NCBI GenBank assembly: GCA_963768655.1
Contig: CAVYIM010000003.1
Location: forward strand, 192,001-256,000
From: an uncultured Chloroflexia bacterium
GTDB taxonomy: Bacteria > Chloroflexota > Limnocylindria > Limnocylindrales > CSP1-4
Reading direction: 5' to 3'
DNA: 64,000 nucleotides
Shown: one piece after another, positions 9,779-16,871 of the stretch
How positions within the stretch are numbered: the first letter of the stretch is position 1
How the letters are laid out: every line of letters begins with the position of its first letter
Position numbers and translations under genes: made by a program
Notes under the pieces: generated by a model
Databases searched by the model: none
What the model saw: the letters and a program-made list of their open reading frames with translations, nothing else
What the model was told of the DNA's origin: nothing

Positions 9779-11617
9779 TCAGGCTTCGCGGATCGCGCGG
9801 ACGGCGAGACCTGCCAGACCCGCAGCCGCGGCGAGGATGCCGCACGCCGCCAGCACGATGTGGAGGCCGAAGATCTGGGCGAAGAGGCCGCTGGTGATCA
9901 TCGCGACGGCGAGCATGGCGTTCACCAGCGCCAGGCGGATGGCGATGACTCGCCCCAGCATCTCGTCCGGCGTGCGCTGCTGGAAGATAGTCTGGCTCGG
10001 CACGACGAATATGACGTTGGCGACTCCGATAACCGCCGCCAGCACCAGCGCCAGCGGCAGGCTGCCGCCCACCGAGAAGAGGACCAGGCACACGCCCACG
10101 AGCGTGAACCCGGCCACGATCGCCGGCCCCTTCGGAATACGCGCCGCGACGGCGCCGATGGCGATGCCGCCGCCCAGGAGCCCCACGCCCATCGACATCT
10201 CGAAGAAGCCGTAGGCCGTGGGCGCGTCCAGCCTCCCCAGCGGCAACGCTGCGACGAGCAAGGGGGAGAGCGCCATCAATGCCCCAAGTCCATATTCGGC
10301 GATCGTGGCCTGGACCGTGGTCGCGAACAGGACCGTCTCGTCGCGCAGGAATCGCCAGCCGGCGAGGAGATCGGCCGTCAGCGACGCGACCGCGCCGCCC
10401 AAACCGGCTGCCCTCGCCCCGGCCTCGCCGCCTCCCGCCGGAACGATACGCGGGATCGCGACCGCGGCCACGAGCGCAGCGGAGGCGAGGTAGCTCGCCC
10501 CATCGATCCAGAACGCCATGGACAGCGCCGGTCCAAGGAACGCCACGAAGAGCCCGCCCAGGCCGTAGCCTGCCAGGTCGCTGGCGGTGTCGGCTACCCA
10601 CATCGCCGAGTTGGCCGTGAGCAGGTCCTCGTCCGGGACAACCTGCGGCAGCGCAGCCGCCCGCGCCGGGCGGAAGAACGACGAGGCGACCGCGATCAAG
10701 AGGACCAGGCCGATGACGAGGCCAATGTGCAGGTTCGCAACGACCGGGATGGCGAATACCAGCGCGGCTCTGACTAGATCCGAGCCGACCATAACCCACT
10801 TGCGATTCCACCGATCGACGAGCGCTCCGGCGAGCGGGCCAACCACCGACGTGGGAATCGTCATCGCGGCGAATACGAGGCCGAGCGCCAGCGGCGATTC
10901 GTTCGTGGCTCGAGCGACGAGGAAGACGAGCGCGATCTGATGGACTCGATCGCCCAGCGAGCTGATGACCTGTCCGAGCCACATGGCCGAGAACGGGCTG
11001 TTGGTCGCCAGCCGAACGTACGGATGGCGGAGCGCCCCCATTCGGACCGACCCGACCGAAACCGACACCAGCACCGGCGCCCGAACGACCGCGGCGAAGA
11101 CGAAGAAAGCCAGCCCCGCTCCGAGCAGCAGGTCGCCGACCGACGCGACAGATTGGATGATCGGGATCGGGATCGGGATGACGTCGGCAAGTGGACCACC
11201 GTGGGCGAAGAAGCTGGCGTCCATCGGGCCGGTCAGCAGGACGTGGAAGCTCGAATGAACGGCAGTCGGATCGAAGCCGGCGGCGGCCAGACTGGGTTGC
11301 CAGACCGGCATCCAACCGCCGTTTACGACGATGGCGATGCCGTTTGCCACGGTGCCCAGGGCGGCGGCCGTCAGCCCGGGCAGGTTCCGGTTGGCCAGCA
11401 ACATGGCTGTGAGTAGGACGTACGCGACCAGGACCAGCCACATCCGAACGGCGTCCGGAATGCCACCGGCTGCGAGGGCCGCGTCCAGCCCGAATCGGGC
11501 CCCTGCAGCCATCAGCAGCACTGGCCACCAGCGCAGCCGGACATCGAGCAGGTTCTCAAGTCGCCCGCCGGCGGCCAGACCCAGGCCAAACCCCAGGAAC
11601 ACGCCGAGGGCAGGCAC
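9779..11617 (-). CDS. DUF5317-like membrane domain fused to an MFS (H+ antiporter/DHA3-like) transporter
   Basis: N-terminal GGRLENL...LRWW...ANRNLPG...ANGIAIVVNGGWMPV...LADVIPIP...SVGDLLLGAG. C-terminal MFS motifs WLGQVISSLGD and AGALVDRWNRKWVMVGSD. Confidence 0.85.
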   Translation of the reverse strand: MPALGVFLGFGLGLAAGGRLENLLDVRLRWWPVLLMAAGARFGLDAALAAGGIPDAVRMWLVLVAYVLLTAMLLANRNLPGLTAAALGTVANGIAIVVNGGWMPVWQPSLAAAGFDPTAVHSSFHVLLTGPMDASFFAHGGPLADVIPIPIPIIQSVASVGDLLLGAGLAFFVFAAVVRAPVLVSVSVGSVRMGALRHPYVRLATNSPFSAMWLGQVISSLGDRVHQIALVFLVARATNESPLALGLVFAAMTIPTSVVGPLAGALVDRWNRKWVMVGSDLVRAALVFAIPVVANLHIGLVIGLVLLIAVASSFFRPARAAALPQVVPDEDLLTANSAMWVADTASDLAGYGLGGLFVAFLGPALSMAFWIDGASYLASAALVAAVAIPRIVPAGGGEAGARAAGLGGAVASLTADLLAGWRFLRDETVLFATTVQATIAEYGLGALMALSPLLVAALPLGRLDAPTAYGFFEMSMGVGLLGGGIAIGAVAARIPKGPAIVAGFTLVGVCLVLFSVGGSLPLALVLAAVIGVANVIFVVPSQTIFQQRTPDEMLGRVIAIRLALVNAMLAVAMITSGLFAQIFGLHIVLAACGILAAAAGLAGLAVRAIREA

Positions 11618-11620
11618 CTG

Positions 11621-16400: not shown

Positions 16401-16871
16401 CGACGTTTCGGACAGAAGAGACGCGCACCGCTGGAGCAGTCTGGGGTCCACAGCCTGGCACGAGGCAACCAGGTAGCGAAGGAAGACCAGGCCGTCGGTG
16501 TCGCCCTCGTCCAGCCGATACCAGAACGTTCGAACGCGCGAGCGACGGAGGAAATCGGCGACGAGTGTCGTCTTACCGAAGCCCGCCTCGGCGACCACGT
16601 ACAAGACCCTGCGGCTTGCCCGAGTCTCGAGCCAGGTGAAGAGCCGATCGCGCCGGAGCGTCTCCGGTGGAAGAAGTGGTCTCTGGATCTTGCCGGGGCG
16701 CAGCGGAAAGCTCGGGCGCACGTACTCGGCATCGCCGGCGACCCGATCTCCGGTCCCGGGCTCGACTGACACCCGCAACTCCTCTATCCCCAGCCGACCC
16801 CCGACCGGCGGGCCGTAGGATAGAAAGCCGAACTGGCGCGTGTCAATCGGATTGACGGCGGAGGCCTGCAT
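13452..16871 (-). CDS. Large ATP-binding transcriptional regulator: MalT-like ATPase, TPR region, winged helix and BTAD
   Basis: LRRDRL..., AEAGFGKTT (Walker A), VLDDFH and TEGWAASLQL. C-terminal REQVIEALWP...YTGRFAVD...DPDAEQIELCLLRLY...LGIEP. Start uncertain (16871 or 16898). Confidence 0.9.
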   Translation of the reverse strand: MQASAVNPIDTRQFGFLSYGPPVGGRLGIEELRVSVEPGTGDRVAGDAEYVRPSFPLRPGKIQRPLLPPETLRRDRLFTWLETRASRRVLYVVAEAGFGKTTLVADFLRRSRVRTFWYRLDEGDTDGLVFLRYLVASCQAVDPRLLQRCASLLSETSVEPTREETVLRTLLTEIDCLGDVPSAIVLDDFHLAEDVPEIRAVVERLIARAPAKLTVILASRRTPNLAAAALRARGELAELGREELRFDETETGRLFRESYRQPLEPDVLHDLQARTEGWAASLQLVRTAVDGRSTAQVRAFVQSLTGAEGDLYDYLAEEVVGELKADLRGFLIRIALLAEIDADIAAVAADVGVAEARRLLGHAQRLGLLSRGAGAIASWRLHPLVREFLLARLEAELGQAGITGLHRGLASALEPQSWRLAARHWAAAGDADEVRRVVCAAVPTIIGTGDFAAAEDLITRFPDSNPNPWYDILRSRQLAAEGRYDEAVAVARQAEEASAGLALVNPEFGMTHALNRLLLGIQRQDSEMSSSASAELVRCGDPELAAIARAAKCVVDSSDAGSLDALRDALIEAARLSRQRNHTRHEAISLVNLSIVEGSRGDHQAAISVGEAAVNLVLSAGNSGDIGAAHMNLAKGLALAGRWGESQAHANSAFGDPGSWVEPETVAEAAELQAMYGDPAEGQRILVQAFQDNPRWVDNTYWRQVEARLELEHGNLDRATSLLSELGIHLQAPAFSSAVRSLGLQILASQSPGDPSLPGSLLEHLRFAERQQAWFWWKSIRLTQALVSSNEALVTHVRSLESGDAAYLSIQAELVTRRLADLDAASLGIVRQEAALRPERWRWALRQLLSNGDARPGDIRRATELLDLVGDETDIKLLRELSKRKSLRIPDAGLALTRRLAPPAFIDDLGRVTVRLGDRVVPGTEIRKKVLSLLTFLLTRPQFTASREQVIEALWPQMEPEAGANSLNQTSYFLRQVFEPTTAEDATAGYLNSRADLVWLDPELVRSRSSECLKLIGAMRRDQSPELVTRLAETYTGRFAVDFTYDDWASTFRDTLHASFLDRIERAVVADTKAGAFERALSVAQLALQADPDAEQIELCLLRLYRRTGAHAAAAEQYAHYASVMREQLGIEPPPLESI

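Follow-up and report, generated by a model that had tools for sequence, protein, structure and literature searches.

Phr/RRNPP and agr systems combine a short precursor, whose C-terminal few residues lie behind an export signal, with a tetratricopeptide repeat (TPR) regulator and a membrane protein for processing or export, and the small membrane protein MgrB modulates a membrane sensor, PhoQ. To our knowledge, the signals of the membrane sensor domains of HD-GYP enzymes are almost all unknown. In Clostridioides difficile, according to one report (PMC13724677), small membrane proteins of 58 residues with a C-terminal hydrophobic helix are encoded behind class I cyclic di-GMP (c-di-GMP) OFF riboswitches that work by premature termination; their genes are multicopy, species-restricted and stand-alone, and are linked to sporulation. 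The locus described here lies in a 64,000-nucleotide stretch of DNA from an uncultured Chloroflexia bacterium (the window). It is an operon whose leader holds a c-di-GMP-II-type riboswitch and two micro-open reading frames (ORF1 and ORF2, the latter of 29 codons), followed by genes for a polytopic membrane HD-GYP enzyme and for a fusion of DUF5317 to an MFS transporter. An earlier note had read the locus as a peptide-pheromone cassette coupled to c-di-GMP; it missed the riboswitch and ORF1, and both change the logic of the operon. The reading we favor, to which we give about an even chance, is a c-di-GMP-gated feedback operon in which the 29-residue ORF2 product is an exported or membrane-inserted peptide that acts locally on the membrane modules.

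The locus was compared with 36 related loci, 18 congeneric and 18 from 18 other genera of the same family. The genes for an upstream regulator, the HD-GYP enzyme and the DUF5317-MFS fusion are syntenic in all 18 of the other genera sampled. A search of one genome per species returned at least 485 related stretches; the best 80 of these are all titled Chloroflexi/Chloroflexota, Candidatus Limnocylindrales or Limnocylindria. This is one operon kept throughout a family of uncultured soil and peat Chloroflexota (Candidatus Limnocylindrales titles). The four co-oriented minus-strand parts that the earlier note had named all hold at their positions, and Pfam and NCBIfam confirm every named domain. 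Gene callers skip the 440-nucleotide "intergenic" leader between the regulator and HD-GYP genes, which contains a promoter and an aptamer as well as both ORFs and a spacer with structure of its own. How the locus is built, that both micro-ORFs are coding, how the RNA folds and that the gene order is kept are computational results.

On the codon evidence, ORF2 is a real gene under purifying selection, far beyond chance. It is exactly 29 codons long, without gaps, in 31 of the 33 copies extracted by script from the window and the 36 related loci, and hand counts likewise gave 29 codons for the copies of loci L038 and L067. Among 19 congeneric copies, including that of the window, 18 are intact and one (L026) is frameshifted, and 17 of the 18 loci from other genera have the ORF; the expectation of the earlier note that a small ORF would be present at homologous HD-GYP loci is thus borne out. 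The ratio of nonsynonymous to synonymous polymorphism (pN/pS) is 0.62 in frame versus 1.14 and 1.27 off frame, and the entropy at the three codon positions is 1.20, 0.87 and 1.60. Codons 22-24 are fixed at positions 1 and 2 and almost random at position 3; Ser25 is specified by both AGY and TCN codons, and Arg4 by all four CGN codons.

The ORF2 product has R4 in at least 90% of copies, a drifting 14-residue core, G, A or S at position 22, then G, an invariant A24 and a tail of consensus S-[YLVFI]-[KR]-[PG]-F directly before the stop codon. By inspection of the alignment and codon tables, this conserved gene has the signal-peptide architecture that had been attributed to it, with the basic n-region, h-region and small -3/-1 residues of the Sec type, followed by the five-residue tail. 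The copies in L023 and L024 are unusually divergent in their N-terminal part, with A-E at positions 22-23. A loose ORF2 pattern had a single match in the whole 3.37 Mb genome, at ORF2. Against Pfam and NCBIfam, ORF2 returned nothing apart from a sub-cut-off match between its hydrophobic core and a model for a sorting domain; we put this match down to composition. An exact DNA pattern of tail plus GTAC was tried outside the genus and found in 0 of 233 genomes of the family's other genera and 0 of 42 of the sister family; it was too strict, because other genera hold ORF2 with a variant tail.

A Sec signal peptide followed by a conserved pentapeptide is also the layout of a pheromone precursor. 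In such a system ORF2 would be exported, and signal peptidase or DUF5317 would free its C-terminal 5-8 residues, perhaps with the MFS driving export, which would couple cell density to c-di-GMP; the receptor would be the HD-GYP membrane domain or, after re-import, the TPR region of the STAND regulator. Consistent with this, the co-transcribed MFS is of DHA3/MFS_3 type and has a weak NCBIfam match to a peptide (ryptide) exporter (E 4e-5, far under the cut-off), the TPR-bearing regulator adjoins in 31 of the 34 loci with enough sequence, and DUF5317 has a conserved polar cluster that is predicted to face outward. However, the tail is nearly invariant, being SYRPF in 17 of the 18 intact congeneric copies with conservative changes only across 14 other genera, whereas pheromone systems usually diversify along with their receptors. 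Further, in three congeners (genomes G005, G006 and G010) ORF2 is kept although no regulator turns up anywhere in the genome at E ≤ 1e-30; there is no peptidase similarity in DUF5317; and the cassette lacks a peptide importer as well as domains of AgrB/AgrC or RRNPP type, Pfam and NCBIfam giving no such match in the three proteins. Finally, the operon already has an evident input, c-di-GMP, because a riboswitch and a second ORF lie in the leader. Of the earlier proposal the parts, the conserved unit and the proximity of DUF5317 to c-di-GMP enzymes survive, and the almost invariant tail speaks against it; the pheromone reading is possible but weakened, and we consider it unlikely.

The aptamer of the window matches Rfam RF01786 over the full model (1-84) with 30.8 bits (E 6.6e-5 to 1.5e-4), and same-locus matches in 14 congeners score 27.9-50.3 bits. 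The element is nearer to the consensus in other genera, where GGGCAC, 28 nucleotides and GTGCAACC occur in 15 of the 18 loci. When 33 aligned aptamers were laid on the Rfam structure plus pseudoknot, 79.6% of cells paired, versus 29-44% with the 3′ partners slid, and the covariation score was 0.219, versus 0.05-0.08 slid; none of 500 shuffles reached 0.219. Sixteen of the 27 pairs are altered on both sides. P3 is 89.4% paired, with 6 of its 8 pairs altered on both sides, and the pseudoknot from loop to 3′ tail is 98.8% paired with one compensatory change. In 12 of the 15 aptamer-bearing loci from other genera the aptamer 3′ end is the 5′ arm of a hairpin that is followed by a T-run; RNAfold draws the aptamer-overlapping terminator hairpin in 10 of them, and a scan finds a terminator in L054. 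Since in most genera the aptamer 3′ end doubles as a terminator arm, bound c-di-GMP should block termination, which would make this an ON switch by which c-di-GMP would turn on the gene of an enzyme that degrades c-di-GMP.

Elements of this kind are abundant in the genus: 34 of 41 genomes have a c-di-GMP-II-like match at E ≤ 1, nearly all sub-threshold, with up to 20 per genome (20 in G019, 16 in G005 and 15 in G001). Genome G000 has three further copies (C4:318475-318561(-), C3:684355-684439(+) and C6:106745-106827(+)), which precede unrelated genes whose products are a protein of 115 residues, a lipoprotein-like repeat protein and a protein of 129 residues; in their pseudoknots the letters are not those of the copy at this locus, with the pairing still intact. 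Among the 8 papers listed by a literature search on c-di-GMP-II with Chloroflexi, Chloroflexota or Limnocylindria, none mentioned the riboswitch.

The first micro-ORF downstream of the aptamer, ORF1, has the consensus M-x-P-[EN]-x-x-x-[KR]-x-W-stop and ten codons in most relatives (19 ten-codon copies found by script and 4 read by eye). Its P3, E/N4, K/R8 and W10 are kept despite codon changes. The 27-nucleotide unit that is duplicated in the window is present in three copies in L022, L023 and L024, and a tandem duplication also occurs in L036; as the repeats are in frame within ORF1, these apparent tandem DNA repeats are coding. Within the genus 5 nucleotides separate the ORF1 stop from the ORF2 start, whereas elsewhere the gap is 3-33 nucleotides or the two overlap; the last codons of ORF1 (TGGTGA) double as the ORF2 Shine-Dalgarno sequence. 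The L023 copy has lost the stop codon behind its final W, and its ORF1 extends over the ORF2 start. ORF1 and ORF2 both end basic-x-aromatic-stop, which may point to a common mechanism tied to termination or to a common recognition motif.

These shared endings, [KR]-x-[WF]-stop on ORFs fixed at 10 and 29 codons, raise the alternative that both are cis-acting leader ORFs with inert peptides. Slow or arrested termination at the basic-x-W/F-stop ends would leave a paused ribosome that remodels the RNA, blocks Rho or drives re-initiation, and so sets the translation of ORF2 and then of HD-GYP. The close or overlapping junction between the ORFs would suit such coupling, as would the spacer behind them, where GTACCTCTCTCCCATAGCC, a block that hardly varies within the genus, begins 2 nucleotides behind the ORF2 stop codon and where the Shine-Dalgarno sequence and start codon of HD-GYP sit inside a stem. 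Short peptides that arrest at stop codons are known, the 14-residue PepNL being an example (PMC11890864). However, the hydrophobic core and basic N-terminus of ORF2 are kept while the sequence drifts, as expected of a membrane or secreted product and not of an arrest peptide that interacts with the ribosomal tunnel; a paralogous ORF (L074, below) lies about 300 nucleotides from the next gene; and covariation does not support the stem around the HD-GYP start, RNAalifold on the ORF2-to-HD-GYP spacer giving one invariant 6-pair stem only. A hairpin after GTACCTCTCTCCCATAGCC varies in sequence with its pairing kept, as judged by eye, and an internal promoter may have its -10-like box in TAGATTGCC. 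The cis-acting model suits ORF1 much better than ORF2, and it can coexist with a peptide function; as a full account of the leader it strikes us as rather unlikely.

Table 1. Features of the locus, in order along the minus strand, with positions in the window.
Feature	Position	Strand	Description
STAND-type regulator	13452-16898	-	MalT-like NTPase, TPR region, C-terminal winged helix (Trans_reg_C-like) and BTAD; 1148 residues
Sigma-70-type promoter	13388-13416	-	TTGACC (13416-13411), 17 nucleotides, TAACGT (13393-13388)
c-di-GMP-II-type aptamer	13259-13343	-	P1, P2, P3 and pseudoknot; between promoter and 29-codon ORF
ORF1	13176-13235	-	GTG start, AGGAG Shine-Dalgarno sequence upstream, downstream of aptamer; 19 codons, MSPEANNRPWLPARNNRPW
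In-frame tandem duplication in ORF1	13179-13223	-	27-nucleotide unit, two copies; repeats ...N-[RK]-P-W
ORF2	13081-13170	-	MRRRIESLLLVLGAGLMAAAAGGASYRPF; basic N-terminus, 14-residue hydrophobic core, G-G-A, tail SYRPF
Non-coding spacer	13013-13080	-	GTACCTCTCTCCCATAGCC, hairpin, TAGATTGCC, stem enclosing HD-GYP Shine-Dalgarno sequence and start codon
Polytopic membrane HD-GYP	11621-13012	-	about 7-8 N-terminal helices (AlphaFold2 model), then catalytic domain
DUF5317-MFS fusion	9779-11617	-	begins 3 nucleotides after HD-GYP stop; DHA3/MFS_3-type MFS

The HD-GYP protein has an HD_5 domain (129 bits versus a cut-off of 27.2), and residues H285, D286, H337-E340 (HHHE) and G346-Y347-P348 are invariant in 25 orthologues. 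Its AlphaFold2 model (predicted local distance difference test, pLDDT, 82.7) gave as its best Foldseek match a c-di-GMP-bound HD-GYP domain (9rbz_A, E 8.7e-10, 36% identity), with 4r8z and 4mcw at about 2e-8. The catalytic residues and fold suggest that the protein lowers c-di-GMP as a phosphodiesterase. Residues 1-235 (12308-13012, minus strand) have a weak Foldseek likeness to the S components RibU, ThiT and BioY of energy-coupling factor transporters (E 0.07-1.2; TM-score by target 0.5-0.68). Taken as a lead, this likeness hints at a membrane sensor that binds a small ligand.

The fusion gene follows the HD-GYP gene as closely as had been noted, and its DUF5317 domain (PF17248) covers residues 28-174 (nucleotides 11536-11096) with 70.3 bits versus a cut-off of 25, or 74.8 bits in the genome search. 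The MFS part occupies residues 207-607 (MFS_1, 109 bits); the public annotation reads "MFS transporter" only. All of the best 120 longer DUF5317 homologues have the DUF5317 plus MFS architecture, and no other fusion was seen among them. The domain model (pLDDT 89, predicted TM-score 0.82) consists of five helices plus, at residues 99-159, a region of four strands, and N76, N92, N99, D145, S159 and D162 are invariant. Because the MFS part follows the last DUF5317 helix, the 99-159 region with N99, D145, S159 and D162 would face outward, and the model therefore places a conserved polar cluster on the outer face, as we infer it. The earlier note had implied an intramembrane peptidase role for DUF5317. 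An LspA-like or aspartyl intramembrane peptidase was rejected, since hhalign against the genome's own LspA gave a probability of 2.7%; a PDB profile search returned chance matches only (E 0.47), the best Foldseek PDB match had E 4.1, and the ESM Atlas held no usable match. No fold or homology of that kind was thus detectable, and the invariant Asp pair D145 and D162 is the sole peptidase hint. No mention of DUF5317 was found in the literature searched.

DUF5317 occurs in 68 of 71 family genomes, fused and stand-alone. Stand-alone DUF5317 adjoins GAF-GGDEF(-EAL) genes with large membrane N-termini in all four extended loci (L071, L072, L073 and L074), and three of six shorter DUF5317 loci have such neighbors (two GGDEF-EAL genes and one GAF-domain gene). 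This gene context suggests that DUF5317 is tied to c-di-GMP enzymes in general. L071 carries stand-alone DUF5317 genes on both sides of its c-di-GMP enzyme gene. In L074 a paralogous 29-codon ORF (L074:6050-6136(+)) with a basic N-terminus, a hydrophobic core and the end GAGMRWW separates a stand-alone DUF5317 gene from a membrane GAF-GGDEF-EAL gene, about 300 nucleotides from the next gene; a second genus (L165) has a counterpart 29-codon ORF that ends GAGVKWV. The triad of peptide, polytopic c-di-GMP enzyme and DUF5317 thus recurs without MFS in two genera.

The recurrence bears on a further alternative, that ORF2 serves the transporter half as a small structural subunit or is a membrane-active, type I toxin-like peptide, in either case with no signaling role. 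Its size and single hydrophobic helix would fit, and the MFS is co-transcribed; but the paralogous peptide keeps company with DUF5317 and a membrane GGDEF-EAL gene and no MFS, and the conserved part of ORF2 is the short polar tail, not the helix. Unlike mobile toxin-antitoxin loci, ORF2 occurs in one copy, in a strictly kept gene order, and purifying selection acts on it throughout the genera sampled; on synteny and copy number we reject the type I toxin. Taken as a whole, this alternative is very improbable.

The regulator gene, whose stop lies 35 nucleotides before the -35 box, is directly upstream of the operon in 13 of the 16 congeneric loci with enough sequence and in all 18 loci from other genera. 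Its N-terminal half matches the MalT-like NCBIfam model PRK04841 with 215.8 bits, under the cut-off of 537; BTAD is above its cut-off (43.5 bits), and Trans_reg_C (21.5 bits), AAA_22, AAA_16 and TPR_19 fall just under theirs. The domain order differs from that of AfsR, in that the NTPase comes first and the DNA-binding part last. The start is likely the ATG at 16871. A TTGACA-18-TATCCT site at 16817-16846 (minus strand), inside the 5′ end of the longest regulator ORF, is the sole promoter-like site reported by a consensus scan of the window; its position within the ORF fits a true regulator start downstream of the GTG at 16898. The genomes G005, G006 and G010 in which no regulator was found are 93-94% complete, and the control genome G012 was positive. 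Their loci (L024, L023 and L035, respectively) retain the promoter block, the aptamer, both ORFs and both downstream genes. Since these congeners keep the peptide, the regulator is not its obligatory receptor or activator; it is an accessory, dispensable layer of control.

Returning to the locally acting peptide that we favor, the operon would work as follows, with the ligand, the sign of the switch, the topology, the partner and the effect on the enzyme all predicted, as are the functions of the peptide, DUF5317 and MFS. Transcription from the sigma-70-type promoter would run into the c-di-GMP-II-type riboswitch, where bound c-di-GMP would prevent termination so that RNA polymerase reads on. 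The read-through RNA would be translated serially into ORF1, the tightly coupled ORF2, HD-GYP and DUF5317-MFS, and the HD-GYP phosphodiesterase would lower c-di-GMP, closing the feedback. The 29-residue peptide would most likely insert N-in/C-out, with its tail S-x-[KR]-[PG]-F-COOH on the outer face, the same predicted side as the DUF5317 polar cluster. Anchored or clipped, it would be a local partner or ligand of the membrane modules that tunes the phosphodiesterase, not a diffusible population signal, and the STAND/BTAD regulator would add a second, dispensable control layer. A complex prediction with HD-GYP residues 1-235, the DUF5317 domain and ORF2 scored 0.25, under the mark of 0.32, and is given no weight here, a 29-residue partner being outside the calibration of the tool.

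Several points weigh against this scheme. Both ORFs are fixed in length and end basic-x-aromatic-stop, which a purely cis-acting leader role fits equally well. The aptamer of the window, at 30.8 bits, is below the RF01786 gathering score of 53.5, which just one match in the 41 genus genomes exceeds; given these sub-threshold scores, the identity of the ligand is extrapolated from the family. In the window's genus no T-run terminator is seen after the aptamer, and the riboswitch is not obligatory, since L053, L056 and L067 are without the aptamer motif yet keep both ORFs. The fold of DUF5317 has no known analogue, so its role is a guess. Further, 17 of 19 membrane GGDEF-EAL loci, many with an adjoining DUF5317, lack such a peptide, and its presence in only two of the 19 means that DUF5317 does not need it. 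An ORF2-like peptide as a general companion of DUF5317 and membrane GGDEF-EAL genes was rejected on the same count.

A variant would have the exported 29-mer clipped to a C-terminal penta- to octapeptide ending [KR]-[PG]-F-COOH that the HD-GYP sensor reads outside the cell, with DUF5317 processing or presenting the peptide and MFS exporting it. We hold this to be distinctly unlikely. If it were true, an extracellular self-made peptide would gate c-di-GMP degradation while c-di-GMP gates peptide production via the riboswitch, giving a closed peptide/second-messenger loop of an undescribed kind. The cytoplasmic 10-residue ORF1 peptide, with its similar C-terminus, could be a second ligand or substrate of such a system.

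The promoter proposed earlier lies within a strongly conserved block, with GTAC motifs on either side of the -35 box in a 19-sequence alignment, and its orthologue in L054 (TTGACC-18-TATAGT) matches the consensus at 10 of 12 positions; it is not among the sites listed by the consensus scan of the window. Contigs of close relatives from four RNA libraries, belonging to four peat or wetland studies, cover 13224-13344 (aptamer) and 13062-13104 (ORF2 3′ end). One contig over the former region has 1 mismatch in 114 nucleotides, and the contigs extend into flanking sequence of close relatives. Coverage was absent over 12700-12947, 13134-13195 and 13382-13600 in four runs, which is not evidence of absence, and all 20 RNA runs listed have small shares (0.11-0.15). 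These data, which are contigs only, may include DNA carry-over and are silent on translation, weakly support transcription of the leader in nature.

The module is family-wide, all the genera sampled having it, in a lineage of soil and peat that is widespread but uncultured, and it joins poorly understood parts: class II-type c-di-GMP riboswitches beyond Firmicutes and Deinococcus, micro-proteins, HD-GYP membrane sensors and DUF5317. The fixed 29-codon length, the conserved tail and the paralogue beside DUF5317 and GGDEF-EAL genes together lead to the hypothesis that membrane c-di-GMP enzymes have small exported peptides as their inputs or partners.

The earlier note knew of no characterized system with this make-up, and the 8 papers listed of 22 in a literature search on HD-GYP, peptide pheromones and small proteins likewise included none in which a peptide is paired with an HD-GYP enzyme. 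The leader element resembles RF01786 c-di-GMP-II riboswitches in its full-length match, its P1-P2-P3 and pseudoknot with covariation, and its terminator-type platform in most sister genera. It differs in that nearly all copies are sub-threshold, two micro-ORFs precede the enzyme gene and the host belongs to the Chloroflexota; c-di-GMP binding is predicted. As with the C. difficile small proteins (PMC13724677), a gene for a small membrane-associated protein lies directly behind a c-di-GMP riboswitch; unlike them, ORF2 encodes only 29 residues, with a signal-like helix at the N-terminus and a tail that is conserved, follows a class II-type aptamer, is single-copy, shares an operon with an HD-GYP enzyme and has no sequence relation to them. 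PepNL-type leader peptides (PMC11890864) are comparable in that their upstream ORFs, too, are very short, do not vary in length and keep the C-terminal residues next to the stop codon; in sequence they are not alike, and the hydrophobic core of ORF2 is something that such peptides can do without. Compared with Phr/RRNPP and agr systems, the locus has a precursor-like ORF2, an adjacent TPR-containing regulator and a membrane protein that could process or export; it has no RRNPP-type receptor, AgrB, AgrC or Opp, and its tail is conserved, not diversified. RRNPP receptors are HTH or phosphatase plus TPR proteins of about 300-450 residues, whereas the regulator here is a 1148-residue STAND NTPase with OmpR/BTAD output that is dispensable in three congeners. 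The likeness to MgrB and PhoQ is that a single-helix micro-protein is co-regulated with a membrane signaling protein as its possible feedback target; there is no homology, and the candidate targets at this locus would be a c-di-GMP phosphodiesterase, DUF5317 or both.

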